Assembly: GCA_963753345.1 (NCBI GenBank)
Contig: CAVWBU010000049.1
Location: 1-64,000, forward strand
Direction: 5' to 3'
DNA: 64,000 nucleotides
DNA from: an uncultured Fibrobacterota bacterium
GTDB lineage: Bacteria; Fibrobacterota; Chitinivibrionia; Chitinivibrionales; FEN-1185
The notes beneath the pieces were generated by a model. It did no database searches and was not told the origin of the DNA. It saw only the letters and a list, made by a program, of their open reading frames with translations. Of this stretch, positions 2,172-53,225 are shown one piece after another; position 1 is the stretch's first letter, and each line of letters opens with the position of its first letter. Made by a program: the position numbers and the translations under genes.

Positions 2172-2308
2172 GGGCGCCCCGCCGAAGACGGCGGCGGCCC
2201 TCCCTCCGGTCTCGGCCGTTGGCCTCGGGCCGCCACGGCCCTATGGCCCATAGGGCCGGGTCCGGGCGGCATCCCGCTTTGGCGGGACCTCCGGTCCTGC
2301 CTGGCGCG
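2172..2308 (+). repeat. Structured intergenic repeat, module 1, copy A
   Basis: GGGCGCC...CTGGCGC ends, two CCTCCGGTC motifs and several hairpins; 8 other copies in the window. Confidence 0.85.
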
Positions 2309-2418
2309 TCGGCAAATTTATGGTTTGTCAATCAGGTTGTGTTGCTCCTGACGCAACCTCAGTGGCATCTAGCTTCACGATATGAATACAAAGTCAAACT
2401 TCTTGTTGACCCGTGTGG

Positions 2419-2446
2419 CCTGGATCTGTGATCCAGGTTCCTTTTT
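2419..2446 (+). terminator. Possible intrinsic terminator
   Basis: CCTGGATC-tgt-GATCCAGG followed by a T-rich tract. Confidence 0.4.
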
Positions 2447-2779
2447 GTTCCCCATACACCTCACAAAGAATCCTCCCGCATAATTCATTACAAAACAACC
2501 TCATACAATTTACAGACACAAAAATAGGATTTTTCTGGGGTTTGCCGCCCCCAGGAATAAGCAAAGGCAAATCAAATAACTCCTTGAAAAACAACCATGG
2601 CACGCTTTTTGAGAAAGTATTGGAGCAACAAACGGTTTTTCGCTCGGTCATTTGCAAACGTACTTGACAAAAGCGAGAAGGAGCTTCGAGCACAAATTAA
2701 GGGAAAGACGGCAGCCCGGGAAGAGGTGCAACCCAATCCAGTCCTCGCCTTTTATCCGGCGCCGTCTTTTTCTTTTTGG

Positions 2780-2806
2780 GGGAGAGATCGCATCTCTCCC
2801 TTTTTT
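2780..2806 (+). terminator. Intrinsic terminator
   Basis: GGGAGAGAT-cgc-ATCTCTCCC followed by TTTTTT. Confidence 0.7.
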
Positions 2807-3066
2807 ATTATGGGGTCTGGGTACCGCATATGCGCCGGTTGTCTCAAGCTATTACCACCTATGAGAATATAGGCGGAGTCGATTGCAAAGCAGATAATGT
2901 GGGGTCGACAAGCCACATACGTTTAACCGCCAACCATGCTGTTTTCCTTCTAAATCTTTGATATGAAAAGAAATATTTTTTAGGTATATTATTTGTTGGT
3001 AGTTTGAAGCATAGGCGGTGGTCTCATGAGGCGCACCGCTCTACGGGAACACCCAAAGGTCCGGTC

Positions 3067-3465
3067 ATGAAAACAATGAAACGTATTCTTCTGATCGCTC
3101 TCGTCTGCCTTTTGCCGGTGTCCGGCCAGACAACATCGTCCGGCAATTCAAAGGACACCGGCCGCAAACAGCACGAAACAGCGGCCATTTTCGACGAGAT
3201 CATGCAGACGCTCCCTTCGGACATGAAAGCCAAGGTTGATTCCGCTTCGGTCTGCGCAAGGAGCGACGCGAAGAAACCGGACAAGGGTTCTTCCGGCGCC
3301 TCTCAGGGTCTGCAGAAGCCTGCCGACAGGGACGGTGCGGTGCGGCAGCTGCCCGATGACGTGCGTGCCAAAGTGGAAAAAGCGATTTCCGACATAGATC
3401 TCATGAATCAGGACAGGCAGATTCAATTTAAGGATTACGAGAAGAAGCGCCCGGGCAGCAAGTAG
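3067..3465 (+). CDS. Secreted hypothetical protein
   Basis: Signal-peptide-like N-terminus MKTMKRILLIALVCLL; internal duplicated LPxDxxAKV motif. Confidence 0.7.
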   Translation: MKTMKRILLIALVCLLPVSGQTTSSGNSKDTGRKQHETAAIFDEIMQTLPSDMKAKVDSASVCARSDAKKPDKGSSGASQGLQKPADRDGAVRQLPDDVRAKVEKAISDIDLMNQDRQIQFKDYEKKRPGSK

Positions 3466-3535
3466 TTCGCTACAGCCGCACCAGCATACGGCCTGCACGA
3501 TATCCCATCCACCTTTCTCGGTAAGGACTGGACCG

Positions 3536-8037: not shown

Positions 8038-8054
8038 ATAAAACCGGGAGACCC

Positions 8055-9870: not shown

Positions 9871-9892
9871 ATAGAATAGTTATAAAAGATCT

Positions 9893-10035
9893 GGGCGTTC
9901 CCCGGCGTGGCGCCGGGTCGGTTCTCCCTCCGGTCTCGGGCTCGCCCTCGGGCCGCCACGGCCCTATGCCGTGAGTACACGGCCGGGTCCGGGCGGCGCC
10001 GCTCTCCAGAGCAGCCTCCGGTCGCCCCTAACGCG
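9893..10035 (+). repeat. Structured intergenic repeat, module 1, copy B
   Basis: GGGCGTT...CTAACGC ends, same internal architecture as copy A. Confidence 0.85.
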
Positions 10036-10094
10036 CGGCAGAGGGAATCTATTGTGTCAAGATGAGATTTTGCGCAGCGCGGCTTGAGTACTTT

Positions 10095-11135
10095 CTATTT
10101 CCCATACTTCTTCGTCAATGTCCTTGCCACAACCCGCATTTCCCCTATAAGTTCCTTTGGTTCCACCACCTCCGCCTCGGGCCATGCAAGCACCCAGTTG
10201 ACGAGGTCCATGCCGATGGGAACATTCAGGGTGAGCAGGATGCCGTCTTTTTTTGCTTCAGTCATTTGCTGAGACGAATGGAATTTCTTTTCCGAAAAAA
10301 TGATCTTGTAATAGGGTGTGGAAGGGAAGCGGATTTTCACCTTAGATACTTTTGGTTCGACCCCGTCGAATATACCGAAACTTTTTACAAGCCGGTCTTC
10401 TATTCGTTTTATACGTTTGGGATCAGGCTCAAATGTTTCGTTCAAAAGCTCGGCTTTGGCAATCCTGCTTATCTTGATGAAAAAGTCTTTGTCATAATGT
10501 TCAGACATGCACACAAAGTAAAGTTCTCCGCAGTAAAGCAGCAGTTTGGCCGGGCAGATGATTTTCTCATACGGTTCCTCGCATTTCCCCGCATGGTAAA
10601 GGATTTTAAGTTTTTTCCGTTTTACAAGCGAGGTAAGGATGTTGTTGAAGTGTTCGCCGTCGAGCGTGAGCGTTGATTTCTCGCCGAGCAGGAACGTGGA
10701 CTCTTCGAGCTTCTGGTCAAGGTCTTCGAATAGTTCATCATAATCTTTCTCTGTGGCGCGGTCGAGCAGAGCCTCGGTAATATCATCCATGGACTTTGCG
10801 CCGGGCGCGAAAAAGGTTTGTAGCCTTTTAAGCAGGAAAAATGCTAAAAGGCCGTTTTTCCGTATGGGCAGGCTGAGCTTCGGCCGCATGTCCGGCTCAA
10901 GGGAATAGTGCTTTTTCCCGGCAATAGTTTCGCACCGTACCGGAATGCCCTGTATTTCAGTAAGAGCCTTCAGGTCTCGCTGAACATTGCGCAGGGTCAC
11001 GTTTTCGTCCTGGCTCAGGAACGTTATTATTTCCTGCACAGTGAATTTCCGCGTTTTGTTGCGCACGAGATGGCCGAAGATCTTTACCAGCCGCTCGCCG
11101 CGAGGAGTCTCAGTTTCTTTTCCCATTGGTTCCAT
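10095..11135 (-). CDS. HTH-WYL-WCX transcriptional regulator
   Basis: N-terminal wHTH (TLRNVQRDLKAL), WYL-like ICPAKLLLYCGELYF..KISRI, C-terminal LVNWVLAW.EAEVVEPKEL; start at 11135 or 11126. Confidence 0.85.
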   Translation of the reverse strand: MEPMGKETETPRGERLVKIFGHLVRNKTRKFTVQEIITFLSQDENVTLRNVQRDLKALTEIQGIPVRCETIAGKKHYSLEPDMRPKLSLPIRKNGLLAFFLLKRLQTFFAPGAKSMDDITEALLDRATEKDYDELFEDLDQKLEESTFLLGEKSTLTLDGEHFNNILTSLVKRKKLKILYHAGKCEEPYEKIICPAKLLLYCGELYFVCMSEHYDKDFFIKISRIAKAELLNETFEPDPKRIKRIEDRLVKSFGIFDGVEPKVSKVKIRFPSTPYYKIIFSEKKFHSSQQMTEAKKDGILLTLNVPIGMDLVNWVLAWPEAEVVEPKELIGEMRVVARTLTKKYGK

Positions 11136-11160
11136 GTCCTTTAATGATAACAAATGGGCG

Positions 11161-11175
11161 CGACAATATTTGTCG
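11161..11175. promoter_or_regulatory. Palindromic operator, candidate WYL regulator binding site
   Basis: Perfect CGACAA-tat-TTGTCG between divergent genes, just upstream of TATAAT at 11187-11192. Confidence 0.65.
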
Positions 11176-11284
11176 TTGATTGAAATTATAATATACATGA
11201 CAGAAGTAAAACAGATTAAGAAGAGAACCGGGAAAAGATTTTTCAACATAAAAATCCTTTGGAATTATAGAAGAGGAGAAAAGT

Positions 11285-12301
11285 ATGGGAACGAAGAAAG
11301 GAAATCGTATGGAAAATGGAAAACGCACTCCAAAGATGTCGGAAACGCAGCGCATGATTCGAAGCGCGGAGAAATTATTGGATGGCCCGTTAATTTCTTA
11401 TTGGAATTCCGCAACTACAGGCAGAATATTTTCATATTGTGCGGAGGCGTTACAAGTACTGCTTGGGGATTTGCCTTTTTCAAATAACCTTTATCTTTGC
11501 CTCACCTCAAACGGTGGTAACGGGCTGGCATCGCTTCGAATCGCCAATCTTCTCCGATGCAAATGCAAAAAGCTGATTGTTCTTGTCCCGATGAGGGCGC
11601 ACTCGGCGGCAACCATGCTTGCGCTTGCGGCTGATGAAATTCATCTTGCCCCGCATGCCAACCTAAGTCCAGTAGACACATCGATACAGCATTCACTTTG
11701 TCCGGTAAATCAATCGAACGATCAGGCGAATGTCGGTCAGGACGAACTTTCGCGGATCGTGGCATTATGGCGCAAGGAATCAAAATCAGAAGCAGTCAAT
11801 CCCTATGCTGAATTATGGCGATATATTCACCCGTTGGTCATCGGCGCGGTAGACAGGGCAAATTCTCTGTCCTTGAAATTGTGTGAAACGCTCTTGGCGT
11901 ATCATATGAAGAATCCGGCATTGCGGAGAAAAATCGCGACCGCTCTTACCAGCGCGTACCCGGCGCATGATTATCCTATCCTTTTTCCAGAAGCAAAAGA
12001 AATGGGCATTCCGGTTAAAAGAATGGAACAAGACCTTGAAAATATTCTCGCTTCTCTTCAGCAATATTATGTGGAAGCGGGCGAGTTAAAAAGAATAGAT
12101 AAGGACCAGGACCAACACCACGACCATGAAATCCCAACCCTGGCCGAACGAACTGGCCAAATGGTACTTTTCCGTTCCGATCACGACTGGTATTATCGAA
12201 GCCAAGAACGCAGATGGATGCAAATGCACCAGAGAGATAGCTGGTATACGGCGGAATTAAGAAAAGGAAAGACGGTTGAGAGGGCGCTGCATATTCAGTG
12301 A
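11285..12301 (+). CDS. Clp-fold serine protease (SDH_sah / ClpP-crotonase-like)
   Basis: LTSNGG, VPMRAHSAATMLALAADEI (catalytic Ser), LSPVD, YPAHDYPI. Confidence 0.85.
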   Translation: MGTKKGNRMENGKRTPKMSETQRMIRSAEKLLDGPLISYWNSATTGRIFSYCAEALQVLLGDLPFSNNLYLCLTSNGGNGLASLRIANLLRCKCKKLIVLVPMRAHSAATMLALAADEIHLAPHANLSPVDTSIQHSLCPVNQSNDQANVGQDELSRIVALWRKESKSEAVNPYAELWRYIHPLVIGAVDRANSLSLKLCETLLAYHMKNPALRRKIATALTSAYPAHDYPILFPEAKEMGIPVKRMEQDLENILASLQQYYVEAGELKRIDKDQDQHHDHEIPTLAERTGQMVLFRSDHDWYYRSQERRWMQMHQRDSWYTAELRKGKTVERALHIQ

Positions 12302-12435
12302 TTATTTAAGGAAATCCACGGTGGAACAAAACCGCGCTTTCAAAACGGCAAAACGCTGAAGAATGTGATGAATGAACGGATGCTGGGCGAATTCACTTTT
12401 TCGCCGAATTATCATGGGCGATGAACTTGGCGTGG

Positions 12436-13431: not shown

Positions 13432-13644
13432 CTTCTCTCCTTTTCAGAGCTTAACATTTTGTGCTTCGCACGGGTGCCCTGTCTGACCCAAAATGACAAA
13501 GTGTGCCACTATCGTCACTCGATAGTGCTCTTGACCGTTGCTTAGAACTAATTGTCAACTATTCCACAAGTCAAGAATCCTCCACCTTAAACAATTCCAA
13601 TGGTCCGGGCGCCCGACGCATTGAAGGACAATAGGAATGTTCCC

Positions 13645-14826: not shown

Positions 14827-14966
14827 GCTTGAAATATAGAAGTTCCACTTCTAATTTGCAAGATATAAGCAACACGTTATTTCACCAAGAACGCCCTCTC
14901 TTCTTGATGGTAGTCTGGGCACCCGTGCGTTCCCCTCGCCTTCGTCAAGACAAACAAAGAATACTT

Positions 14967-31383: not shown

Positions 31384-31646
31384 AGGTGATACCTCGTAAC
31401 TAGAACATACACCAAGAAAAGGGAAAAGTCAATAGTCTATTATACAAATGGTGTTCATTTAGAACACGAATCACTATCGGACCAATGGTGTTTTGTACAG
31501 TGCAGGACGGCATATCCGTCACTTATTTTACTTGTTCACAACTGTCAAAGGTACTTGGGCAAACGGAAGGCTCCCATCATTTGCCCAAACGAAGTTTCGT
31601 CTTCGCGCTAAGATCAAGCTGATGATGGTGAGACGATCTTGTTTTT

Positions 31647-31786
31647 CGCGCCAGGCAGGACCGGAGTTGGTCCCGCCATAGCGGGATTGCCGGCCGACCC
31701 CTCGCCGAAGGCGACTAGGGGCGGACCGGCAACGAGGCGAACAGCCGAGCCCGAGAGGGAGGGCCGCCGCCGAAGGCGGGGCGCCC
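31647..31786 (-). repeat. Structured intergenic repeat, module 1, copy D
   Basis: Reverse complement reads GGGCGCC...CTGGCGCG. Confidence 0.85.
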
Positions 31787-31860
31787 AAGAGCTTTATTCT
31801 TCACAAAGGGACTATTTAACACGGAATCAACATATTATTTATAATACTTGTGGAGCACTC

Positions 31861-37902: not shown

Positions 37903-37928
37903 ATAGCGAGAGCGATGAAAGAAGAGTT

Positions 37929-38343
37929 GGGCGTTCCCCTCGCCTTCGCTCGGGTTGGCCCTCCTTACGGTCTCGGCCGCCGGCCTCGGGCTGCCACGGC
38001 CCCTAGGCCGGAGTACCGGCGGGGTCCGGGCAGCATCCCGCTTTGGCGGGACCTCCAGTCCGGCCTAACGCAGCGGCAGAAGAAATCTCATTAGTCAATC
38101 TTATTTCTCCGCCATCCAGAATCCCACATTATCCGACAAAGATTCTTCTTGCTTTCAACTGTCAACCGACAACTGCCAACTTTCAACTCTGTTTCTCGGT
38201 GCCGCCACAACAATGTAGGGTTTTGCAGCTGCTTTGTCAAGGCGGCCACCCAGGAGGGGGTAGCGGAGGACCGGCCGCGCACTCCAGAATACCTGTTTAT
38301 CAATGAGCGCAACCGGGCCGTAGCGAGGGGGAAACCTCCCCCA
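37929..38343 (+). repeat. Composite structured repeat, copy F
   Basis: Module 1 37929-38071, heptamer linker, module 2 38198-38343. Confidence 0.88.
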
Positions 38344-39941: not shown

Positions 39942-40185
39942 AAAAGAACCTCCGTGTTTGGATCGGGATCGGGCCGTTGTCTTAAAATATAGTACGCTTG
40001 GGGAAGAGGAAATGGGGTGATGAAAATTTCGGGTGCAGGATGATGTTTGATGATGAACGGTGTCGCGAGGGGAATCAACAATTACTCGATAATGGTGCCT
40101 GCGAAGAGTTGCGGATTCAAACATGTATTTTATCTATTATTCCTAATCTTCTTGGTGTCCTCCGTGTCCCCGTGGTGAGTTTTCT

Positions 40186-41886: not shown

Positions 41887-41981
41887 GGATGCGGCATAAC
41901 TCCCGGCTGCGGTGGCGAAAGGCTTTTCCGGCCTATTGAAAATAGTGCACGGCGGGCGGCATCGGACAGCGGGAAGCGTTG

Positions 41982-43022
41982 CTACTGCCGCACGACGATG
42001 CGGCGGCCCGCCTCGCCGAAGACGCCGCGCACGGACGCGAGGTAAACGCCGGGCGCAAGCGACCGCAGGTCGAGCGAAAAAGACCGCGCAACGCCGCGGC
42101 TGGAAAGCACGCGCCGGCCATCGATGCACACGACCTCTGCCGCATAGGCCTGCTCGGACGGAAGCTCGACCGAAAGCCGCGAGCCGAGATTCGTGACGCC
42201 GGCCGCGGGCGCGCTTCGGCGTGCCGCCGCAGGCACGCCGACGTTTATGGTGGGGTCCCAATTGTAAACACGGACGTAATCCACGACAAGGCTTTCCGGA
42301 AAGATGGTGGAGTTGTCGATGTTGCCGTCGAAGTTACCGCCCACCGCAAGGTTCAGAATAAAGTAATATTGTTTGTCGAACGGGACGTTGGGGTGGGCGT
42401 CTTTGGTGAGAGTCCCGAAATACACGCTGTCGCAAAACCAGCGTATCGAATCGGTGCTCCATTCGACGCCGTAAAGGTGAAAGCTGTCGTGGACGTTCCC
42501 CTTCGGCAGCGTGTACTGGTTAAAGAGGTCGTAATTGGTGCAATGATACGATCCAGACGTCCAGTTCGGCAGACGGCCCTTGCCTTCCATTATGTCAATT
42601 TCTCCGCAGGCCGGCCATCCGCCGCCCACGCCGAGCATCCAGAACGCGGGCCACATGCCCTGGGTGATAGGCAGGCGCATGCGCGCTTCCATGCGTCCGT
42701 ACATGAATGTTTGCTTCCCCGAACTTTGAATCTTGCCGGAGGTAATTTCCCCGGAGTTTGTTGTCTCGAGGATCAAGCAGCCGTTCTTGACGAACACGTT
42801 CGATCCTGCCTTGTCGTGTCCGGCGGTGTAATGTTCCTGTTCGGCATTAGGAGGATTGTCCGTTTGCTGCACCGTCCAGTTTGCCTCGTTGAGCGCGGTA
42901 CTGTCGAATTCGTCGGACCAGAAAAGCTTCCAGCCGCCGGCAATAGCGTTTGTCAAGATGACAGCCACCAGGAGCGCTGCGGTGCGCAACGCTTCAGTTT
43001 TCAAAGATGTCCCACGGAACAT
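41982..43022 (-). CDS. GH16 beta-1,3-glucanase (laminarinase-like) with T9SS-like tail
   Basis: WSDEFD, WPAFWML, GEIDIME, ILNLAVGG, VDYVRVY. Confidence 0.92.
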   Translation of the reverse strand: MFRGTSLKTEALRTAALLVAVILTNAIAGGWKLFWSDEFDSTALNEANWTVQQTDNPPNAEQEHYTAGHDKAGSNVFVKNGCLILETTNSGEITSGKIQSSGKQTFMYGRMEARMRLPITQGMWPAFWMLGVGGGWPACGEIDIMEGKGRLPNWTSGSYHCTNYDLFNQYTLPKGNVHDSFHLYGVEWSTDSIRWFCDSVYFGTLTKDAHPNVPFDKQYYFILNLAVGGNFDGNIDNSTIFPESLVVDYVRVYNWDPTINVGVPAAARRSAPAAGVTNLGSRLSVELPSEQAYAAEVVCIDGRRVLSSRGVARSFSLDLRSLAPGVYLASVRGVFGEAGRRIVVRQ

Positions 43023-43230
43023 TTCAACCGCCTGTTCTACTCCCCAGATGAGTTGTTAAACGCTTAGAATTCGAAAACGGTCAATACCCTCTAATAATAA
43101 GGATAATCGTCGTTGTTTGCCCTAAGAATCTGATCGGCGCGCAAGAATACTCCGTGAAATGCTGCACAGATAGTTAGTGCATAATGGACTTGAGTTGAAA
43201 CTAGGGATACATGTCTTAGAAGAGTCTTTA

Positions 43231-43634
43231 TGGGGGGAGGTATCCCCCTCGCTTCGGCCTCCTCGGCCTTTGGCCTGCGGTATCCTACGCTACCCCCTCG
43301 TGGGTAGCCCCCAAGAAAGTTGATTTGCGAGAAAGAAACTTCGGCTGCGGGGGCACCGAGAAGAATAGTTGAAAGTTGACAGTTGGCAGTTGACAGCAGG
43401 ATTGGGGAAAAGTTCCTGGTTTGTATTGAGTATTCCGATTGGCGCAATAAAAAACCAGCCTGAATAGACTTCTTCTGCCGCGCGTTAGGTGGACCGGAGT
43501 GGTCCCGTCATAGCGGGATTGCCGGCCGACCCCCGGCCGAAGGCCATCGGGGCGGTCCGGCAACGAGGCGAATAGCCGAGCCCGGAGGGAGACCGACCCT
43601 TGCCTTCGTTTTAACGAAGGCAAGGGGAACGCCC
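43231..43634 (-). repeat. Composite structured repeat, copy G
   Basis: Module 1 43481-43634, heptamer linker, module 2 43231-43357 with a covarying GCCCCC/GGGGGC stem. Confidence 0.88.
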
Positions 43635-43662
43635 AAGATCTCTCGTTATCTCAAGAGAAAGT

Positions 43663-43944
43663 CTATCTCTCATCCCTTCTCGCCCGGTAAGCCATGGCCT
43701 TCTCCAGTTGCGCAATCGCCTTGCGCGAAGCAGCTATGGCCGCAGCCTTGTGACCGCCGAAATTGTGCGGGGCCGCTTCCATATAGGCAATGGCGTCCTC
43801 AAGGTCCCGGATTGCGGTTGCGATGCGGGGATGGTCGGCCAGCTCGGAGCCGACCGCAGCGCGAGGCGCCGGCTGCGCCTGCACCTGAGAGCAGGGAAGG
43901 ACCAGAACCGCAGAACACAGCGCGAACAGGAGAGCTTTCTTCAT
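43663..43944 (-). CDS. Small secreted helical protein
   Basis: Signal peptide; HPRI..A...L..A...FGGHKAAAI; AGGAG RBS. Confidence 0.8.
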   Translation of the reverse strand: MKKALLFALCSAVLVLPCSQVQAQPAPRAAVGSELADHPRIATAIRDLEDAIAYMEAAPHNFGGHKAAAIAASRKAIAQLEKAMAYRARRDER

Positions 43945-44050
43945 ACCATAACTCCTTTGGTTTGGGCATGTGGCAGAACGAGCATTCGTCGCCTGCAGTA
44001 ACGCGGGCGACGAATGCGTGGGTATCCGAAATAAGGCCTCAGCAGACGGG

Positions 44051-44320
44051 CTATCTTTTCTTGCTTGACAGGATCCTGTACGTTTGCGAAACCGACAATC
44101 CGAACTTCTTGGCGATTTCGATGCCGGTTGTGTCGCCCTTGTACATGGCGATCACTTTCTTGTCGCGGGCGGGATTGAGCGCCCTTCGCGAGGGGATACT
44201 GTATTTTGCCCGCAACTGGTGGATGGCCTGACGGGTCACTCCGAATTTCTTGGCGATCGCCTGGTCGGTCCTGAGGGTCTTCTGCAGGCGGACAAGGTCA
44301 CTCTTGCTTGTAAGAGCCAT
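44051..44320 (-). CDS. Small basic protein with two HTH motifs
   Basis: QAIAKKFGVTRQAIHQL and IEIAKKFGLSVSQTYRIL; AAGGAG RBS. Confidence 0.8.
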   Translation of the reverse strand: MALTSKSDLVRLQKTLRTDQAIAKKFGVTRQAIHQLRAKYSIPSRRALNPARDKKVIAMYKGDTTGIEIAKKFGLSVSQTYRILSSKKR

Positions 44321-44471
44321 ACACTCTCCTTTGGTAATAAGTGGTTCGGTTGTTCATCTCCCGCTCCGGGGACTCTCGCGCCCGGATGGGCGTTTGTTTG
44401 AGTATTAGACTGCATAACGGGAAAAATGTTTCCGATTTTGTTTCGGCGCTGCAGACATGCAGTTTCTAAAC

Positions 44472-44486
44472 GCAAGGATTGTGCCA
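44472..44486 (-). promoter_or_regulatory. Sigma54 (-24/-12) promoter
   Basis: Minus strand reads TGGCACAATCCTTGC, matching the TGGCAC-N5-TTGC consensus, about 150 bp upstream of the double-HTH gene. Confidence 0.75.
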
Positions 44487-44517
44487 TTTGTCCTGAGGGG
44501 GGAACGGCGGCGACGTT

Positions 44518-44640
44518 GTCAATCCCACAGCGAGCGGATTCCTCGGAGCTTGCTCCGGGGTTAGCGAGCGACTAACAGCCTGTTCTTTTTCTATAGGGAT
44601 GGAAGATTCCTCGTCCCGCGGGACTGCGGGGTTCTTCAAT
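44518..44640. mobile_element. Possible non-autonomous IS200/IS605-type end pair (MITE-like)
   Basis: Starts GTCAA, has hairpin CCTCGGAGC-tt-GCTCCGGGG, then a second imperfect hairpin ending TTCAA; no ORF. Confidence 0.35.
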
Positions 44641-44857
44641 TCCGGGAAGACAATTGGGAAAAGGAGAATGCTGGAAGAGGTCTTGCAGCATGACTCTTGC
44701 AGAGCGACACGCGCCGAACCGCTTCCGAAAGGGCTTTTAATGCCGCTGGATATTATTTTGTTGGCTGGTGATAAGGATCGGTTTCCTGCAAGAGCTCACC
44801 ATGGCCGGGTGCAAGCCTGCCGATCGATCGCAACGTGCTGTTTGCCAGAGGAACGTC

Positions 44858-45793
44858 ATGAACCCGGTTCGCAGCGTCCTTGTTGTCGTGCTTGCCTTTG
44901 CCTCGTTCTCCTATGCCTCCTCCGCCGATTCCCTGTCCGGTGCACCCGGCCCGTCCCTCGTGCTTCTGCCCGATTACTATCTGTGCTTCGACATGTCAAC
45001 GTTCGCGCTCTACCGTGACGCGTTTTTCAAGCGGGAGTACCTGGCCGAGCAGCATCCGCAGTTCGAATTCTGCCTCTTGTCATACAAAAACCTTCTCGCG
45101 TTTACGTGGGACGTTGATTTCCAGGTGGGGCTCGGCGAGGTGCCGGGGAACAACGTTTTTACGGTGCTCAGCATTGCGTTCGGCTACAGTCCCGCTCTGG
45201 AAGTGCGGCTCCGCGATGTGTGGATATCGGGCGGCCTGGAACACCGGTGCCTTCACGATGTTGACAGAAGCGATTTTCCCGTCGCCTACTGGAACAGGGG
45301 GGTTCTTAATTGCTCCTCCCCGAACGCACGTCTCGGCGCCTACTGGCACGCGCTCGCGGCCGACAAGGACTTTTCGCAGAAGAGCCGCGTTGCCTGGCAG
45401 GCGCAGTCGGCCTATTGCATCAAGGACTTTTTCGGCCTTGTCTCCCCTGGAAAGCTCGACGGGTACGATCCCTTTGTGTGGGAGGTGAACGGCGTGTGCC
45501 GCTATGCCTTCTTCAAACGCGGAAGCTGGATTCTCGACCTGCGGGGTGAGAGTATCGCGGGCAATTTCAGCAGAGCGCACGGCTATCATGTGTCAAGCGG
45601 CACCAACTGGTACTGGCGCGAGACTGCCGGGATCGAGGCGTTCTTTACCCGAGGGGTACGCGGCGCAAGCCTGTACGTTCTTTATAACCTCGACGACATG
45701 CCGGCCGATCCCAACGGTCCGTCGTTCACGCTGGGCGATTCGCGGTTCTCGAAAGACGAACTGCTCCAGATCGGGGTGACGTTTTTCAATTAG
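44858..45793 (+). CDS. Secreted, probable outer-membrane hypothetical protein
   Basis: Signal peptide; aromatic-rich strands; C-terminal QIGVTFFN. Confidence 0.65.
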   Translation: MNPVRSVLVVVLAFASFSYASSADSLSGAPGPSLVLLPDYYLCFDMSTFALYRDAFFKREYLAEQHPQFEFCLLSYKNLLAFTWDVDFQVGLGEVPGNNVFTVLSIAFGYSPALEVRLRDVWISGGLEHRCLHDVDRSDFPVAYWNRGVLNCSSPNARLGAYWHALAADKDFSQKSRVAWQAQSAYCIKDFFGLVSPGKLDGYDPFVWEVNGVCRYAFFKRGSWILDLRGESIAGNFSRAHGYHVSSGTNWYWRETAGIEAFFTRGVRGASLYVLYNLDDMPADPNGPSFTLGDSRFSKDELLQIGVTFFN

Positions 45794-45852
45794 GGGTAAG
45801 AGGGAACCTCACGGCGAGAGACACGCCCCCGACCTTGAGGCAACATTAACCC

Positions 45853-46494
45853 ATGACGCATCTTCATCCTCACATCATCCTGGAGACTCTTTCCGCCGCG
45901 ATTGTCTTCGGTTTTGCCGCCGGATTCTCGCCCGGTCCGCTCCTTGCGCTCACCATTTCCCAATCGGTGAGGCACGGCGCCCGCGAAGGCGTTAAGGTCG
46001 CCTTTGCGCCGTTTTTTACCGACGCGCCGATAATCGCCGCGTCCCTTGCGGCCCTCGCGCGGCTGGAACACCTCAAGCCCGTGCTGGGCGCCATAACCAT
46101 TGCCGGCAGCCTGTTCGTGTGCTGGCTTGGATACGACAGCATCCGCACTTCAACGCTTCGGGTTGATGGCAAGAGCGAAGGCGCGGGATCGCTGGGCAAA
46201 GGAATTGTTGCCAACTTTCTGAGCCCGCATCCTTATATTTTCTGGATGGCGGTAGGCTCGCCGTTCGTGCTCAGGGCCTGGACAGCGTCGCATGCTGCGG
46301 CGGTCCTTTTCCCCGTGTGTTTTCTTTCGAGCCTTGCCGCCGCCAAGGTGCTGGTGGCGATTGCCGCCGGACAATCGAGAAGGTTCCTGAGCGACAGGGC
46401 ATATTCGGCGATCATGAAGACGCTCGGGGTTGCGCTCTTTGCGTTTGCAATACTGCTTGCGCGGGAAGGCGCGGCGTTGTTGACATCCCGGTAG
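45853..46494 (+). CDS. LysE-family translocator
   Basis: GFSPGP, NFLSPHPYIFW, hydrophobic. Confidence 0.9.
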   Translation: MTHLHPHIILETLSAAIVFGFAAGFSPGPLLALTISQSVRHGAREGVKVAFAPFFTDAPIIAASLAALARLEHLKPVLGAITIAGSLFVCWLGYDSIRTSTLRVDGKSEGAGSLGKGIVANFLSPHPYIFWMAVGSPFVLRAWTASHAAAVLFPVCFLSSLAAAKVLVAIAAGQSRRFLSDRAYSAIMKTLGVALFAFAILLAREGAALLTSR

Positions 46495-46527
46495 GAAGGT
46501 CCGCATCACCTGCTCAGAAAGGCGCGT

Positions 46528-47475
46528 ATGAAAACGAAGTCGATGGCCGTGATGCTTCTCTGCTGTCTGCTCGCGATTACCTGCTGTATCAATCCGATCC
46601 AGAAGGTGATTGACCAATTCAACAAGCCGCCCGACATCGCCGCGTTCACCAGGGCGGTGAAGGTGAACCTGCCCCTGGCCTATGCCGCGTCCATTGCCAT
46701 GGAGGTGATGAACAAATCCGCTGTTGCGGGCGTTACCCTGGCGCGCACGAACGATTCGTTCCCGTGCAACGCGATCGTCACCATCCCGGTCAACCGCAGC
46801 AATCCGCTTCCCGTGGGCAGCGACACGGTGACTGGCTCGATGATGGTGGCCGGACTCTGGGCCGACTCGAACACCGCGGTCGCGTCGGTGTTCTTTACGC
46901 ATACGAACATCAGGGACGGCACGTTTGAGCTTCGCGACGTCGCCTTCGTGCCCATCACCCGCGACTCCTCGGGCACCATGGTGGTGTTCGCGAGCGAAGA
47001 CGTGAACGCCGATTCGAGCGTGGTGATGACCACGACCATCACCGATTCGCTCTTTAATGTCAAGTTCCAGGGCGTTCCGGACTCGCTTCCGACCGACAGT
47101 TCTCTCGCCGTGCATCAAAATGCATGGATCACCATCGCGCAGCGGCCCGCCGGAGCAGCCATCGGCCGGGAAACGTACACGCTCTACGGCGCGAGCCAGT
47201 ATCTGGGCGTTTCGTCTTCAACCACCGAGGTTATTGAGGCGGTGATGGTGGGGGTGAAAATGACGCCGTTTGCCTGCCGCGCAAACCCAGACAGCGGATA
47301 TGCCATGGTCCGCGACATCAAGATCCAGGACGCGAACCATTCGTCGGACATCGACCTCGGGACCACGGTGTTGACATTTAAGACCGCGTGCACGGGGCAG
47401 GCGACCATCCTGCTCGCAACGGGCGAATACCTGGCGCGGACCGGCTCGACCATTGCGCTCAACCTCGACCAATAA
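46528..47475 (+). CDS. Hypothetical lipoprotein
   Basis: Signal peptide ending in Cys; 315 aa. Confidence 0.7.
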   Translation: MKTKSMAVMLLCCLLAITCCINPIQKVIDQFNKPPDIAAFTRAVKVNLPLAYAASIAMEVMNKSAVAGVTLARTNDSFPCNAIVTIPVNRSNPLPVGSDTVTGSMMVAGLWADSNTAVASVFFTHTNIRDGTFELRDVAFVPITRDSSGTMVVFASEDVNADSSVVMTTTITDSLFNVKFQGVPDSLPTDSSLAVHQNAWITIAQRPAGAAIGRETYTLYGASQYLGVSSSTTEVIEAVMVGVKMTPFACRANPDSGYAMVRDIKIQDANHSSDIDLGTTVLTFKTACTGQATILLATGEYLARTGSTIALNLDQ

Positions 47476-47491
47476 CAAAAGGGGAAACTGC

Positions 47492-48397
47492 GTGAAATTG
47501 CGGGACGTTCCCTTGGTGATCGCGGCAGCCGCTTGCTGCGCATTCTGCCAGCCGGACAGCGGCAACATCGTGCACACCGGCCAGGCTACCTACTACAGTG
47601 CGACCGGCGACGGTGCGTGCATGTTCGGCCCGTCTCCCGGCGACCTCATGGTGTGCGCGATGAACGCCGCCGAATACGACACCGCAGCCGTATGCGGAGC
47701 GTCGATTCACATCGTCGGGCCTTCGGGGGAGGTCACGGTGCGCGTCGTTGATTTGTGCCCGGAATGCCCCAGGGGCAATGTTGACTTGAGCAAACAGGCG
47801 TTCGCGAAAATCGCCGACACCATCCTGGGGCGGGTCTCAATTACCTGGCGGTATGTGGAAACAAGCGTTTCCGGCCCGATCGACTACCGGATAAAAACAG
47901 GGAGCAATCCCTGGTGGATCGGCATTCAGATTCTTAACCATCGCAACCCGGTTGCCAGGCTCGAGGCGGACAGCGCGGGGAAATGGATTACCGTGCCGCG
48001 CATGAGCTACAATTACTTTGTGGATTCTTCGGGGCTTGGCCCCGGACCCTATAGCTTCAGGGTGACGGACCTTTACGGCCAGCAGTTGACGGACGCAAAT
48101 ATTCCGCTCGCGCCGGATGCCATCACCCCGGGCGCGGCGAATTTCGCAAGCCATGCGGCAACGGTAAGGCAGGGCATCGCCTCGCACGACCTTAGGGGCA
48201 GTATACACATGATCTTGAGGGCGGTGATGGGCCGGGGGAGATTGCTGGGACCGACCGAAAAGGGGCCGTTTGATGTTTATAGGATAGACGGAGCCTTTGT
48301 CGGCCATGTCACTAATTCCGTCGGCGGCGAAAACAGGATCGCCGTCGGCGTCTATCTTCTAAAACCGGCGGGTGGCACAAATCAAGGAGAGCAATAG
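47492..48397 (+). CDS. Bacterial expansin (EXLX1-like; DPBB + CBM63) with T9SS-like tail
   Basis: GQATYY..GAC, VVDLCPEC, DLSKQAF, KTGSNPWW, RMSYNYF, RVTDLYG. Confidence 0.9.
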   Translation: MKLRDVPLVIAAAACCAFCQPDSGNIVHTGQATYYSATGDGACMFGPSPGDLMVCAMNAAEYDTAAVCGASIHIVGPSGEVTVRVVDLCPECPRGNVDLSKQAFAKIADTILGRVSITWRYVETSVSGPIDYRIKTGSNPWWIGIQILNHRNPVARLEADSAGKWITVPRMSYNYFVDSSGLGPGPYSFRVTDLYGQQLTDANIPLAPDAITPGAANFASHAATVRQGIASHDLRGSIHMILRAVMGRGRLLGPTEKGPFDVYRIDGAFVGHVTNSVGGENRIAVGVYLLKPAGGTNQGEQ

Positions 48398-48477
48398 AGG
48401 GCTGATCTCTATGTGGATATGCGCGCCGGCGTATCCGCCAACGGTGAACGCCAACCAATTCGCTATTCACTATTCAA

Positions 48478-50724
48478 TTACAACCGCGCAAACGTCTGCG
48501 GGGCGCTCGTGGCCCCGTTGTGCTTCACCCGCACGATGATGCATCCCCTGGCCGCGGCATCGGGGATCGCAACGGGCCTGCTTCCGACAACGGCAAGCGC
48601 GGCGAGTTGACGGCCGCGCATATCGAAAATCTGAACGAGCGCCCGTTCGCCCGCCGCAATGCCGCGCACCGAAATACGATTTCTGCCGCTTATCACCGCG
48701 CACACCGGCGCTGCGGCGGCACGGACGCCTGCGCCATGCAACGTGGACACGGGAACGCCCAACGCGACCATGGCGGCCAGGGCGTCCACCTTGCCCGCGC
48801 CCCAGCGCACGTCGGGTGTCGTTATCGGGCCGGTATACTGGTCCTTGATCGCCGTCTGTTGCAGGATGGTGGTGACGCTTTCCGGTGTGAGCGTCGGATC
48901 GGCCTGGAGCATGAGCGCCACGATGCCCGCCACGATGGGCGCGGAAAGCGATGTGCCCTGGCTCCAGGCATACCGGCCGGCAAGACTTGCCTGCGTAGGC
49001 CACGCGACGGTTCGGCTGTTGTCGGGTGCGTTTCTCGGGATTGCCCCCACCACCATGCGGCCCGGCGCGCAGATCTCCGGCTTTATCCTTCCGTCAACCG
49101 TTGGCCCGATGCTCGACCACGTTGTCCACTCGTACAGCGCAGAGTCCGGATGGCCCGTTGTCGATCCGTCGTACAGGAATGTCGACGACTTGCTGTAATA
49201 GCTGCCCACGGAAATGATCCGCTTGGCCGTGCTGCCGATTTCGTTCACCGTGATGAGCGTGTCGCCGTCGTAGAAGCCGGGAGAGCCCTGGCCCCACATG
49301 TTGTGCTTGTAGCAGTTCCATGCGTGAATGGTGCAGGCAGAGCTTGACGTGACGCGAATGCCGGGGATAACGCTCCAGTTGCTGGAATAGACGTAGATTT
49401 CGGTGTGCGGCTTCTGGTTGGTGGCGTTGGCCTTCTCCACAAAGGTCTCAACGATAAGCGTGTCCGGTCCTTTTGTGGCGTTGGGCCAGAGAAACTTGTC
49501 CGCCGATTGGCTGTTCCTGTTTGTCGTGAGTGCGATGCTGCTTTTTCCGAATGCGCCGGTCGAATCCTGCAAAACGTACAGTGTGGTGGAAAAGGGCTTG
49601 TTCGGCTCGCCCCATATGTCAACGAGGGAATAGGCGATATATTTCTGGTTTGTGGGACTCACGGAATCCCAAACATCCTCGGACCAGACCCATGTTCCCA
49701 TGGTGTCGTTGGCGGCGAGCGGAAACGCGATGTGCACCTTTGTCGCGCCGTCGTTGCCCGCGGCCCCGACCACGATGCGGCTGAGGCCCGTTGTTGCGCT
49801 CACGCCCGACAGGGCATCAACGGCCTGGTCGACGAGCGAGGTGCCGTCGTGAGGGCCTTCCTGTATGCCGATGCTCATGTTCACGACGCACGGCATCTTG
49901 AGCGAGTCCGCAATCGAAAAGATCCAATTGAGGCCGTTGACGATATCTGCGGTGGTGCCGCTGTCGCTGCCGTACATCACACCGATGATCGAAGCGTCGG
50001 GTGCCGCGCCCGTATACGCGAATTGCCGGTCCCGTCCGGCGCCCATGCTGGCGGTCATGGTTCCGTGGGTTTCGGGGCCCAGGCCGAACAGGGTGTCTTT
50101 GTCAATTTCCTGCTGCATCCGTATGAGTCCGTAGCCGAAACGGTTGGCTCGAATCTTTGATGTGTCGGTCTGGTTCCAGATGCCGACAAATCTTGAATGG
50201 CCGAGCGAATCAAGGAAGGCCGGGTGATGCGTATCGAATTCGGTGTCGAGGAATCCAATGAGCACGCCCTTGCCGGTGAAATGCTTGGTGAGGCCGCTTG
50301 GCGCGGTGCCCTGAACTTCGTTGATGTGCGTTTCGCGCCGCACCGAATCCATGTTTGAGAAAATATGCTTCCGGTGTTCAATGGAGAGAATACCCGGGAT
50401 CGCCGTGAGGTAGGGCGCAGTATGCTCGCATCCTTCGAGGGATGCGATATCGTTTATCCGTGTAACGAGGCGCCATCCTGCCGGCGCCAGCGAGGACGAA
50501 GAAAACGTTTTATCCACAAGCGCGAGCACGCGTATGGTCTTTTTGCAGCCCGAGCGTTGTATTTCCGCTGAGGCCGCCAGAAGGTTTTCACGAGTGGGAA
50601 GCATCGGGTGTTTGTTTATTTCAAAGGTCCCCACGTAGTGGACCGGCTTGCCGACATTCGCACCGCTGAGTGTTGCAATCCCGGCAAGCATCAGCAATGC
50701 AAGGCTTCGGATCAAAGACATCAT
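48478..50724 (-). CDS. S8 subtilisin-like serine peptidase with T9SS-like tail
   Basis: GFLDT (Asp), HGT (His), AAGND, GTSLSAP (Ser). Confidence 0.9.
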   Translation of the reverse strand: MMSLIRSLALLMLAGIATLSGANVGKPVHYVGTFEINKHPMLPTRENLLAASAEIQRSGCKKTIRVLALVDKTFSSSSLAPAGWRLVTRINDIASLEGCEHTAPYLTAIPGILSIEHRKHIFSNMDSVRRETHINEVQGTAPSGLTKHFTGKGVLIGFLDTEFDTHHPAFLDSLGHSRFVGIWNQTDTSKIRANRFGYGLIRMQQEIDKDTLFGLGPETHGTMTASMGAGRDRQFAYTGAAPDASIIGVMYGSDSGTTADIVNGLNWIFSIADSLKMPCVVNMSIGIQEGPHDGTSLVDQAVDALSGVSATTGLSRIVVGAAGNDGATKVHIAFPLAANDTMGTWVWSEDVWDSVSPTNQKYIAYSLVDIWGEPNKPFSTTLYVLQDSTGAFGKSSIALTTNRNSQSADKFLWPNATKGPDTLIVETFVEKANATNQKPHTEIYVYSSNWSVIPGIRVTSSSACTIHAWNCYKHNMWGQGSPGFYDGDTLITVNEIGSTAKRIISVGSYYSKSSTFLYDGSTTGHPDSALYEWTTWSSIGPTVDGRIKPEICAPGRMVVGAIPRNAPDNSRTVAWPTQASLAGRYAWSQGTSLSAPIVAGIVALMLQADPTLTPESVTTILQQTAIKDQYTGPITTPDVRWGAGKVDALAAMVALGVPVSTLHGAGVRAAAAPVCAVISGRNRISVRGIAAGERALVQIFDMRGRQLAALAVVGSRPVAIPDAAARGCIIVRVKHNGATSAPQTFARL

Positions 50725-50839
50725 ACAGGAGCTCCCTATCGCAGTCCTACCACATAGTATAGCACGGGATTGAGGGGTTTGCCAGATTTTGTTGGGGAGA
50801 CTAGGGGAATCCAATTCATTAGAATACATGAGAAGAGAT

Positions 50840-50976
50840 GGGCGCCCCGCCGCTTCGCGGCGGCGGCCCTCCTTCCAGGCTCGGCCTTTGGCCTCGTTGC
50901 CGCCTGTCCCGACCGCCTTCGGCGAGGGATCAGGCGGCAATGCGCTCTAGCGCACCTTCCAGTCCGGCCTGGCGCG
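50840..50976 (+). repeat. Structured repeat, copy H (module 1; linker split by the IS, heptamers resume at 51987-52014)
   Basis: GGGCGCC...CTGGCGCG followed by GGCAGAAGAAGTCTATTC as in copies E and G. Confidence 0.85.
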
Positions 50977-51031
50977 CGGCAGAAGAAGTCTATTCTGTCA
51001 AGTTTGATTTCTGCGCTGGCTGGAATACTAA

Positions 51032-51953
51032 GAGCTTATCCATAAATAAGAATTGTGGTTAATGTCGGCATATATGATATTATTTCCATGGAAGAACCAA
51101 AAAAACGCAGGCTCTATTCATGGGAGATATCGGACGAGTTCTGGGCGAAAGTTGAACCGTTAATACCGAAAAAGAAGCGTGATCGCCGTCAGAAGTTCGT
51201 TCGTGAATCAGGAGGTGGACGGAAACCCATATCACCTCGTCTTGTTTTGGCTGGGATAGTTTTTGTTCTTCGGACGGGAATTCAATGGAAAGCGCTTCCG
51301 AAGACTCAATTTGGCAGTCCAAGTGCAATCCATCGCTATTTTCTTGAGTGGCAAAAGGCCAGATTCTTCGAGAAATTGTGGAAAGCAGGGATTGCCGAAT
51401 ACGACGATATGGAAGGCATAGCCTGGCAATGGCAAAGTATTGATGGTGGGATGAACAAAGCCCCACTTGCACTTGAAAATGTCGGCCACAACCCAACTGA
51501 TCGGGGAAAAAAATGGCAGCAAGCGAAGCATACTCGTCGACGGTCGTGGCATCCCGCTGTCGCTCGTCGTGAGCGGAGCACAGAAGCACGACGTGAAGTT
51601 GCTGCCTGATACACTTGACAACATTATGATAGAACGTCCAACAACAAAAGCTCGTCGGAGACAGCATTTGTGTGCTGATAAAGGGTATACAGGAGAGCCC
51701 GCGTTCAACCAGTGTGTCGAGCGGCGATATATCCCTTGCATTCGGCAACGAGGAGAAGAAATTGAAATGAAGCGCAGGAACCCAAGGTTCAAGGCGCAAA
51801 GATGGGTTGTGGAGCGATGCTTGTCGTGGCTCAACCGCTTCAGAAAATTGCTGGTTCGTTTTGAAAAACTTGCTCGTAGTCATACAGGTTTACTACAGTT
51901 GGCTTGTGCAATAATATGTTTCAGACAATCAACTTTTATTTATGGATAAGCTC
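51032..51953 (+). mobile_element. IS5-family insertion sequence (922 bp)
   Basis: Perfect 18-bp terminal inverted repeats GAGCTTATCCATAAATAA / TTATTTATGGATAAGCTC; TAA target duplication at 51029-51031 and 51954-51956. Confidence 0.93.
51088..51949 (+). CDS. IS5-family transposase in two ORFs joined by a frameshift at an A7 run (51507-51513)
   Basis: VLRTGIQWKALP, SIDG, NPTDRGK | GSKRSILVDGRGIPL, ADKGY, RWVVERCLSWLNRFRKL. Confidence 0.9.
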
Positions 51954-52023
51954 TAAGATCAAACCGCCAATGTTGATTCTTTAAGCTGTCAACTGTCAAC
52001 CGCCAACTGTCAACTCTCTCTAG

Positions 52024-52788
52024 CTATTCAACAAGCTTTCTAATCTCCGCAATCGCCTGCTTGATCGCCACAACCTCATCCGCCAGCATGTCCACCTTCT
52101 TTTCGAGTACTGCGAACCGGTCGTTGACCGAGCCTGTTATCGCCGGCGCGGGCGAAGCGCCTTCCGGCGGGGGAACTTGTTGTGCCGGGACATCGCCGAA
52201 AAAGCAGTGCGCGTAACGCTGTTCCTTTTTTCCCGGCTGCTTTGGCAGTTTTGCAACAAGCGGCCCGAGAGAAGGCGACATCAGCTTGAGCACGCAGGTT
52301 TCCACTTCGTCAATGGCGGGAAAGGCGTGCATGCGTGTGCATACGGTGCGCAGTTCCCCGGCCGTGAGCGGGCCGCGCAGGAGCAGCTCGGTGAGGATGG
52401 CCAGTTCGGGTCGAACAAGGTTCGCGGCGACCGAACGGCTTGCCGGTGCGTTTTCCGCTGACGGGTCCGCGTTTGCCTGCGCGCCCGCCGCGTCGGCGGG
52501 CGCGTCCTGCGCCGCAACCGCGAGCCGCGCGGGAAGGTTGTGCTCGAACTTGGGAACCCTGCCGCCGGCCGTGGAAAGCTGCCACGCCAGGTTCTTGCCG
52601 CGCAGGGATTCGAGCGCCATGGTCACGTCGTCGGCGGTGAGCGTCATCACGGGATCGCGGTTGTTTTTCTGGTTGCACGCGGCTACGAGCGCGTTGAGCG
52701 AGAGCGGGTAGTATTCGGGCGTGGTGAGTTCCTTTTCGACAAGCGACCCGAGGACGCGTGCCTCAACAAGAGAAAGGATGATGTCCAT
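52024..52788 (-). CDS. YceH/DUF480-family protein
   Basis: EARVLGSLVEKELTTPEYYPLSLNALVAACNQKNNRDPV, LLLRGPLTAGEL. Confidence 0.92.
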   Translation of the reverse strand: MDIILSLVEARVLGSLVEKELTTPEYYPLSLNALVAACNQKNNRDPVMTLTADDVTMALESLRGKNLAWQLSTAGGRVPKFEHNLPARLAVAAQDAPADAAGAQANADPSAENAPASRSVAANLVRPELAILTELLLRGPLTAGELRTVCTRMHAFPAIDEVETCVLKLMSPSLGPLVAKLPKQPGKKEQRYAHCFFGDVPAQQVPPPEGASPAPAITGSVNDRFAVLEKKVDMLADEVVAIKQAIAEIRKLVE

Positions 52789-52886
52789 GCGAAAGATCCT
52801 TTAAGGGTAGTATTGTTTGGCCAGGGACCAGTTTCATGATATCAAAATACTACTATTGCAATGTTAATGTTTTTTCAAGTTCTTGG

Positions 52887-53225
52887 TGGGGGCACCGCTT
52901 CGCGTTTCCCCCTCGCTGCGGCCTCCTCGGCCTTCGGCCTGCGGTGTCCTCCGCTTCCCCCTCCAGCAAAGGGGCGCGCCGAAGTCGCTCGCTTGACGCT
53001 CGCGAGGCGTCGCCCCTTCGCAACGCAACCGCTGTGGTATGCCGCTACGCGGCGATAGTATATGAGGATGCAAGCAATTGCCTGTTGCGCTTGCGCCAGG
53101 CCGGACTGGAGGCCGCGCTGGAGCGCGGTGCCGCCAGGACCCGCCGCAACGCGGCATTGGGCCGTGGCGGCCCGAGGCCTGTGGCCGAGACCGGAAGGAG
53201 GGCCGCCGCCGAAGGCGGGGCGCCC
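52887..53225 (-). repeat. Composite structured repeat, copy I (divergent linker, partial module 2)
   Basis: Module 1 53093-53225; module 2 3' part GGAGGGGGAAGCGGAGGACACCGCAGGCC...CCCCCA. Confidence 0.82.

Follow-up and report, generated by a model that had tools for sequence, protein, structure and literature searches.

The window analysed here, a stretch of 64,000 nucleotides (positions 1 to 64,000 of contig CAVWBU010000049.1, assembly GCA_963753345.1) from an uncultured Fibrobacterota bacterium, carries nine copies of a structured element that we call M1. M1 is best read as a new family of dispersed repeats with an unusually elaborate structure, similar in lifestyle to REP (repetitive extragenic palindromic) elements and the bacterial interspersed mosaic elements (BIMEs). 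It folds into a multi-branched structure with covarying helices, occurs in hundreds of copies in the genome, lies between genes, is patchily distributed among related bacteria, drifts neutrally in place and is independent of a second module, M2, found behind many of its copies. On balance, M1 is probably a non-autonomous selfish DNA repeat that is copied only when its single strand folds correctly. Its mobility would proceed via the folded single strand, as DNA rather than RNA, and with a dimeric protein as likely partner.

The element had originally been predicted from the letters of the window as nine intergenic copies with compensatory base changes. A covariance model built from these nine copies (R1, used throughout) found exactly nine matches in the window (116-149 bits, E 6e-22 to 8e-29), which agree with the predicted coordinates to about 12 nt. 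All nine lie between called genes, as expected from the prediction; genes were called with our own caller, which is based on codon usage and is crude (3054 genes, 75.7% coding). A plain MAFFT alignment of the window copies has 53 invariant columns and a mean column identity of 61%. The predicted split of the closing stem is present, with GCGCC/GGCGC in five copies and GCGTT/AACGC in four (C:G/C:G and U:A/U:A, respectively, at alignment columns 10:192 and 11:191), and the variation described for the central stem and for the last hairpin can be seen too.

The source assembly (G000; genomes, contigs and loci bear working numbers with G, C and L) comprises 4,516,072 bases in 55 contigs, with 55.9% G+C and 94% completeness. 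A search of the whole assembly with nhmmer, using a profile of the nine copies, revealed 412 M1 matches at E <= 1e-3, among them 343 of full length, 330 of which are distinct with flanks. The copies measure 135-230 nt, mostly 140-190 nt, and occur at a density of about one per 11 kb. Nearly all full-length copies (339/343) are intergenic, overlapping a called gene by not more than 40 nt. With about 400 copies, this intergenic siting and a patchy presence among relatives, the dispersal is of the kind proposed originally, like that of REPs or miniature inverted-repeat transposable elements (MITEs).

Fold and covariation of M1

The 330 copies were aligned with MAFFT and subjected to a structure-blind mutual-information scan, a check that is independent of the model. 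The scan recovered P1a, P2, P1b, P3, P4/P5 and P6, which are as follows:

P1a: GCGYY/RRCGC
P1b: GGY/RCC
P2: hairpin of variable length, branching off the rod
P3: GGCC-TTC-GGCC
P4/P5: long arm with one bulged T
P6: hairpin

The outer rod consists of P1a, P1b and then two CYTCCRG strands annealed together, which are about 85 nt apart in the sequence. The junction at the tip of the rod bears three hairpins, namely P3, the P4/P5 arm and P6, and M1 in total has about eight helices with a multi-way junction. The motif predicted to occur twice per copy is present in all nine window copies, but its two occurrences are the two strands of one helix and not two sites. Within this helix the strands pair as C:G and Y:R, then oppose T.C, C.C and C.T, and pair again as R:Y and G:C. 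At 51:140, 177 copies have T:A and 135 have C:G (Watson-Crick in 313/330), and at 55:136 there are 287 copies with G:C and 32 with A:T (Watson-Crick in 319/329). The mismatches inside the helix are near-invariant (T.C in 323/330, C.T in 327/330). A second 3x3 pyrimidine loop (CTC vs TCC) lies between the CYTCCRG segment and P1b, and the rod is therefore near two-fold symmetric about the central C.C.

An alignment fitted with R1 included 113 copies from the window and from 20 dense genome regions, 20 out of many possible. In this alignment 92.6% of 4224 cells were paired, compared with 80.0 +/- 0.3% in 500 shuffles, and 31 of the 39 pairs change on both sides. The covariation score was 0.338 vs 0.137 in the shuffled alignments, none of which (0/500) reached the observed value, and pairing fell to 38-45% when the 3' partners were slid by 1-3 columns. 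The 113-copy alignment is fitted to the structure and hence biased towards it; the MAFFT scan serves as the independent check. The fold and covariation of M1 are real. Selection on a multi-branch fold, as suggested in the original prediction, is supported by covariation in both the 113-copy and the 330-copy alignments and by the kept complementarity of the helices.

Triloops on perfect 4-bp stems are TTC in 192 of 854 cases and GAA in 3, and the TTC loops are closed by C:G in 191/192. The earlier remark on frequent TTC/GAA triloops thus holds as a count, on the sense strand, and the asymmetry shows the fold to be polar. Read on the antisense strand, the triloops become C(GAA)G and the internal loops GGA x GGA. 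In DNA, hairpins of the C(GAA)G type and tandem G.A pairs have a notably high stability. By prediction, the antisense strand is slightly stabler in 238/330 copies with RNA parameters and in 250/330 with DNA parameters. G.T pairs do not decide for the sense strand, as the 103 "G.T" cells at 85:108 are equally compatible with G:C and a bulged T shifted by one position. The M1 sense strand coincides with the G-rich strand in 41% of copies (Fisher p = 0.008), a weak replication-strand bias that is confounded with gene orientation.

Among the 330 copies the helix states assort almost freely, and most helix pairs show all common combinations frequently (state counts of 78/15/98/116 for P1a vs P1c and 66/26/162/50 for P1a vs 87:106). 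Helix partners 85-130 nt apart nevertheless remain complementary. Free assortment together with kept complementarity indicates selection on pairing and argues against simple descent from a handful of inherited subfamilies. The sole tight linkage between helices is that of P1a with P2 (88/1/0/212).

The source assembly holds pairs of strain-variant contigs (e.g. C16/C4, C2/C26 and C10/C3) that are 93-99.9% identical. Between such contigs M1 differs at 4.1% of sites (130/3163), other intergenic DNA at 3.5% and genes at 2.5%; the drift of single M1 copies in place matches the neutral rate of intergenic DNA. Among rare variants confined to one copy, those that break a pair are about as frequent as those that keep it (about 64 G.T vs 81 A.C cells). 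Neutral drift and pair-breaking rare variants together imply that selection acts at copying and not on copies in place. A copy is at most 98.5% identical to its nearest neighbour (median 92%), the median over all pairs being 70%, and the family is old and diverse. Short M1 forms are deletions between short internal direct repeats. A search for forms with the outer scaffold and no interior yielded only such products of deletion decay and one solo form of 49 nt.

Window copies, accompanying modules and relatives

The M1 copies of the window, and the modules behind them as located with nhmmer profiles, are as follows:

2168..2320, plus strand: M1 copy A, closing stem GCGCC/GGCGC, no linker behind; R1 149.3 bits, E 8.1e-29
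9889..10047, plus strand: M1 copy B, GCGTT/AACGC, partial linker 10036-10065; R1 116.4 bits
14963..15142, plus strand: M1 copy C, extra hairpin inserted after the first CYTCCRG strand; R1 121.0 bits
15131..15408, plus strand: behind copy C, linker hairpin 15131-15189, degenerate TCAAC-type tract, M2 15270-15408
31635..31790, minus strand: M1 copy D, GCGCC/GGCGC, no linker; R1 124.7 bits
32989..33142, minus strand: M1 copy E, GCGTT/AACGC; R1 118.9 bits
32740..33000, minus strand: behind copy E, linker 32942-33000, TCAACT 8-mer repeats within 32864-32941, M2 32740-32863
37925..38085, plus strand: M1 copy F, GCGTT/AACGC; R1 129.0 bits
38074..38343, plus strand: behind copy F, linker 38074-38125, TCAACT repeats, M2 38198-38343
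43469..43638, minus strand: M1 copy G, GCGTT/AACGC, long P2 hairpin; R1 120.4 bits
43233..43480, minus strand: behind copy G, linker 43422-43480, TCAACT repeats, M2 43233-43357
50836..50988, plus strand: M1 copy H, GCGCC/GGCGC, linker 50977-51016; R1 149.4 bits
53080..53229, minus strand: M1 copy I, GCGCC/GGCGC; R1 130.0 bits
52904-52966, minus strand: partial M2 behind copy I, after a different middle module
32864-32941 (minus), 38126-38197 (plus) and 43358-43421 (minus): 8-mer arrays between linker and M2

The order behind M1 is fixed and polar, M1-linker-TCAACT repeats-M2. Genome-wide, the linker hairpin has 253 matches and M2 has 283, and runs of TCAACT-type 8-mers form at least 131 arrays with a strict pattern that misses some. 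The clusters comprise 99 of M1-linker-M2, 61 of M1-linker-TCAACT repeats-M2, 98 of M1 alone, 71 of M2 alone and 8 of the linker without M1. The outer type of M1 is linked to the presence of the linker, which follows 161 of the 214 TT-type copies vs 33 of the 99 CC-type copies. M2, likewise a structured repeat, is about 130 nt long and has purine-rich AGGAGGGGG tracts and covarying stems of its own, e.g. 31:70 (CG 176 / GC 59) and 95:127 (GC 180 / AT 43). The 8-mer arrays (NNTCAACT / NGCCAACT) have 3-6 units and are always situated just upstream of M2.

M1 does not travel with M2. Over 148 composites, the relatedness of M1 and that of M2 were uncorrelated (rho 0.026), and the M2 partner of the nearest M1 neighbour was 69.7% identical, vs 69.4% for that of a random composite. 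No M1 column covaries with any M2 column. The composite as a single mobile unit was rejected on the grounds of this missing correlation and covariation.

Twelve out of 41 related genomes match M1, the matches in the order's other families being few and weak. Copies of M1 abound in four of the five other species of the genus, and no match was found in the congener G003 (99% complete) nor in two sister genera. In a sample of the phylum, 15 of 151 genomes match at E <= 1e-5, and all but one weak hit fall within this order; M1 is restricted to one order of Fibrobacterota. In other families, the distant relatives of M1 retain the rod and its pyrimidine loops as well as P2, P3 and P6, and can have P4/P5 shortened or lost.

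G003, G004 and G005 lack M1 at the orthologous site of copy A. Sites E and G are occupied by different M1 subtypes in G000 and G001, despite flanks that are 87-93% identical, and at site E the M2 present in G000 is missing in G001. The loci of close relatives available for site F (L080 and L117) stop short of it, and the intergenic DNA of congeners, about 70-80% identical, is too diverged for reading the exact ends of M1. Public contigs from four DNA runs covering 31000-50999 break at every repeat copy and join different copies, and gave no filled or empty alleles. The M1 family thereby fragments the assemblies of these peat and sediment bacteria.

M1 also marks sites where intergenic blocks, and possibly gene blocks, are exchanged. 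The block replacements between strain-variant contigs have their breakpoints at gene ends or at M2. The block 10062-15500, between the same-orientation copies B and C, holds four accessory genes, which encode a WYL/WCX protein, an SDH/ClpP-like protease, a protein of unknown family and an AAA_14/DUF4143 ATPase. No counterpart of this block is present there in G005, G002 or G004, and G005 has a single M1 at this place.

The genes flanking the window copies are ordinary and mutually unrelated, including those for malic enzyme, a sigma-54 activator, FolD, an H+-pyrophosphatase, a GH16 glycosidase, a subtilase, DUF480 and others. Copy B starts 19 nt past the stop codon of the sigma-54 activator gene. 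An IS5-like insertion sequence (51028-51967, with a DUF4096 open reading frame at 51055-51609) lies directly behind the linker of copy H, and at least four near-identical copies of it are present elsewhere in the genome (C18, C32 and C35). The window also encodes Fib_succ_major and DUF4423 domains. The nearest public records to its H+-pyrophosphatase are from Fibrobacterota metagenome-assembled genomes (97% and 91%), followed by those of Chitinispirillaceae (80-83%). The metagenomes containing the stretch are from peat, freshwater sediment and soil, and for 31000-40999 no RNA run was found to contain it.

Proposed mechanism and alternative explanations

If M1 is a selfish repeat selected at copying, the near two-fold rod with its invariant unpaired bases may be the docking site of a structure-specific, probably dimeric protein. 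Once docked, this candidate protein would copy or move M1. The inserted copy would then drift neutrally and decay by small deletions, and M1 copies may exchange segments among themselves. A more specific proposal, possible though unlikely, is an undescribed system of single-stranded DNA mobility or recombination. In this proposal a dimeric enzyme of no known transposase family would dock on the CYTCCRG rod and copy from the folded antisense strand with its GGA x GGA loops and C(GAA)G triloops, and the polarity towards M2 would reflect oriented, repeat-targeted insertion.

Several observations weigh against a selfish repeat copied through its folded strand. No two copies at different loci are identical (maximum 98.5%), which gives no support to recent movement, and gene conversion among old copies could yield part of the pattern. 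The comparison of filled and empty sites gave no clean pair at near-identity from which to read the exact ends, any target duplication or the insertion chemistry. Between strain-variant contigs, all three differences involving M1 are swaps of whole intergenic blocks, with no single insertions. The counts of gene context are approximate owing to the crudeness of the gene caller. Either strand may be the one that folds, with a predicted stability edge for the antisense strand, and the weak orientation preference in tandem gene pairs (given below) would also fit a role in transcripts. IS110, the integron integrase and small GIY-YIG genes do not track M1, and in G000 no match to Y1_Tnp (PF01797), RVT_1 (PF00078) or TnpB (PF07282) was detected. 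The partner enzyme may simply be lost if the M1 family is no longer active.

The original prediction of a trans-acting enzyme of the HUH/RAYT type did not find support, given that G000 has neither a Y1 transposase nor a reverse transcriptase match. Y1 was also unmatched in G001, reverse transcriptase in G001 and G005 (both M1-rich), TnpB in G002, G004 and G005, and IS110 (PF01548) in G001 and G004. IS200-like Y1 copies are present in G002. The RAYT-like Y1 gene of G004 (152 aa) is surrounded by a repeat array of a different kind (locus L160, G004:C33, 3370-4700), whose units measure about 110 nt and have several short hairpins each, and belongs to a separate REP/RAYT system; the nearest M1 is 2.2 kb away. 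Small GIY-YIG (PF01541) genes were found in 40 of the 41 genomes that were searched, also in M1-free ones, and neither of the two in G000 has M1 on both flanks. A true integron integrase (TIGR02249, 430.6 bits vs a cut-off of 265) is encoded at G000:C18:30734-32029. Such integrases are present in many relatives as well, but none was found in the M1-rich G002, and the M1-free G003, G006 and G007 have one. As partners of M1, all these families were rejected, since none of them tracks its presence. About 15 kb upstream of intI in G000 have no called genes and may be a cassette array; neither M1 nor, by a simple R-box search, an attC site was found in this region. M1 composites are located just downstream of intI.

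An unlikely alternative, yet one to be taken seriously, is that M1 acts as RNA in ordinary transcripts. The antisense M2-(AGTTGA)n-linker-M1 would then be part of the 3' untranslated region of the upstream gene, with a U-rich end, and be kept by the host as a terminator, insulator or exonuclease block. In agreement with this, the M2-side end faces a gene 3' end in 206/330 copies, where the neighbouring gene runs into the composite antisense, and the antisense strand is co-directional in 111 copies within tandem gene pairs vs 64 for the sense strand. However, 124/330 copies face a gene 5' end. The M1 5' end follows a stop codon in 159 copies (median distance 24 nt), which would suit such a role, or precedes a start in 171 copies (median distance 100 nt), and this end shows no preference. 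An A-rich tract precedes M1 on the sense strand, corresponding to a T-rich tract after M1 on the antisense, but the latter starts 7-9 nt past the closing helix and not directly behind it. The slightly better antisense fold, with its GGA x GGA loops, would fit too. On the other hand, copies drift at the neutral rate in place, which argues against the upkeep of individual copies as in a structured RNA gene, one congener species and two sister genera manage without M1, and a covarying fold of eight helices far exceeds the needs of a terminator. A mobile RNA, such as a self-cleaving ribozyme or a retro-element spreading by RNA copy, is hardly to be expected. The conserved multi-branch fold and the invariant unpaired bases have a ribozyme-like complexity, but none of the M1-rich G000, G001 and G005 has a reverse transcriptase match, no conserved promoter-like motif other than the A-rich tract is found upstream, and no Rfam ribozyme family matches.

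Two further explanations regard M1 as a DNA site. A domesticated platform for a nucleoid or topology protein, comparable to the BIMEs bound by gyrase and IHF in E. coli and kept alike by gene conversion, is quite improbable. The invariant loop bases and near two-fold geometry, the BIME-like mosaic grammar and the mixing of helix states between copies, as conversion would mix them, are in its favour. However, the covariation at 51:140 and 55:136 reflects pairing within a strand, which binding to duplex DNA does not require, and both the neutral drift of copies in place and the lack of M1 in close relatives disagree with domestication. Very improbable is a recombination site formed by a folded single strand, like attC or CTX attP, and used by a tyrosine recombinase, with M1 copies bounding exchangeable gene blocks. 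The annealed CYTCCRG strands form a near-symmetric site with an unpaired centre and variable terminal structure, strain variants swap whole intergenic blocks, and the 5-kb block 10062-15500 is missing in G005; the block bounded by copies B and C is only one isolated case, though. The true integrase of G000 would provide the recombinase, but its distribution does not follow that of M1 (G002 vs G003, G006 and G007), and there is no M1 on the expected cassette side of intI. The closing stem GCGYY/RRCGC varies freely between C and T where attC needs an invariant GTT/AAC, and the window has no one-directional arrays. A selfish repeat selected for its fold at copying is our preferred reading of M1.

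Comparison with known families

No Rfam family matched the window at the gathering score. A permissive scan of one whole composite against 4227 Rfam families, which we take to include Flavo-1, gave two chance-level matches (E = 2.2 and 9.8), neither of them on M1. The resemblance to Flavo-1 noted in the original prediction has therefore no counterpart in the scan, in which no Rfam family matched M1 at E <= 10, and M1 is not assigned to Flavo-1. Its suggestion of an undescribed class agrees with this result. M1 and Flavo-1 are alike in being multi-copy structured motifs of unknown role in the Fibrobacterota-Chlorobiota-Bacteroidota group. A search for papers on Chitinivibrionales repeats returned none on such an element, judged by the titles and the opening lines of the abstracts.

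The attC sites and the attP site of the CTX phage function as a folded single strand, in which distant half-sites anneal, unpaired bases and a variable terminal structure are present, and the structure is kept while the sequence is free. By analogy, M1 would share this fold logic, with annealing half-sites, unpaired bases and a variable top. In contrast to attC, the R''/R' boxes (RYYYAAC / GTTRRRY) do not occur in M1, whose closing stem carries CC/GG in some 100 copies and TT/AA in some 221. M1 is also not arranged in one-directional arrays, the strands in the window being + + + - - + - + -.

The bcr1 repeat of the Bacillus cereus group, of about 150 nt, has a conserved predicted fold with compensatory changes, and the pneumococcal BOX element is modular (A-B-C); both are intergenic. 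M1 is similar to these in being about 150 nt long, folded, modular and intergenic. It differs from them in having no evident terminal inverted repeats beyond the closing stem of 5-6 bp, and in its density of about one per 11 kb. Regarding MITE features, the ends of M1 pair over only these 5-6 bp (P1a), and there is no clean empty site in which to read a duplication. Unlike palindrome-associated transposable elements (PATE) derived from IS200/IS605, or the guide RNAs of TnpB/IscB, M1 has no Y1_Tnp or TnpB in G000 and no Rfam match, be it to HEARO or to IS605-orfB RNA.

M1 can also be compared with the REP, BIME and REPIN repeats of Enterobacteria and Pseudomonas and their RAYT (Y1 HUH) transposases (PMC3116915, PMC3733652). 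Like these repeats, M1 has hundreds of intergenic, GC-rich and self-pairing copies with a patchy presence among relatives. The combination of M1 with other modules in a fixed grammar resembles that of BIMEs. As with REPs and REPINs, copies of M1 persist as a sequence population within the genome. However, REPs are imperfect palindromes that form single hairpins of 20-40 nt, whereas M1 has 135-230 nt, about eight helices and a multi-way junction. In contrast to the REP/RAYT system, no RAYT is present in G000 or G001, and the Y1 gene in G004 has repeats of another kind on its flanks. M1 also differs from the inverted doublets of REPINs, as only 19 tail-to-tail (convergent) pairs occur among 330 copies; their spacing is tight (about 100-110 nt), and their arms are 64% identical, compared with 70% in random pairs.

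The Ssn single-strand nucleases of the GIY-YIG family are, according to PMC11893778, small proteins that recognise single-stranded DNA hairpins, the SRM/NTS, dispersed in hundreds of copies. M1 is comparable to the SRMs so described in being a structured repeat with hundreds of dispersed copies. Different from M1, the SRMs of that source are hairpins of 20-50 nt flanking ssn, and the SRM pattern is not enriched in G000 (17 matches, one of them within M1, vs 50 in a shuffled genome).

Dispersed repeats of bacteria are usually simple hairpins with known partner enzymes, such as RAYT, the TnpA of IS200/IS605, and Ssn. Compared with these, M1 stands out by its ribozyme-like complexity, its approximately 400 copies per genome and a fold that is selected at copying, with no known partner enzyme alongside. 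If the partner of M1 is found, it could be a new enzyme that reads the structure of single-stranded nucleic acid.

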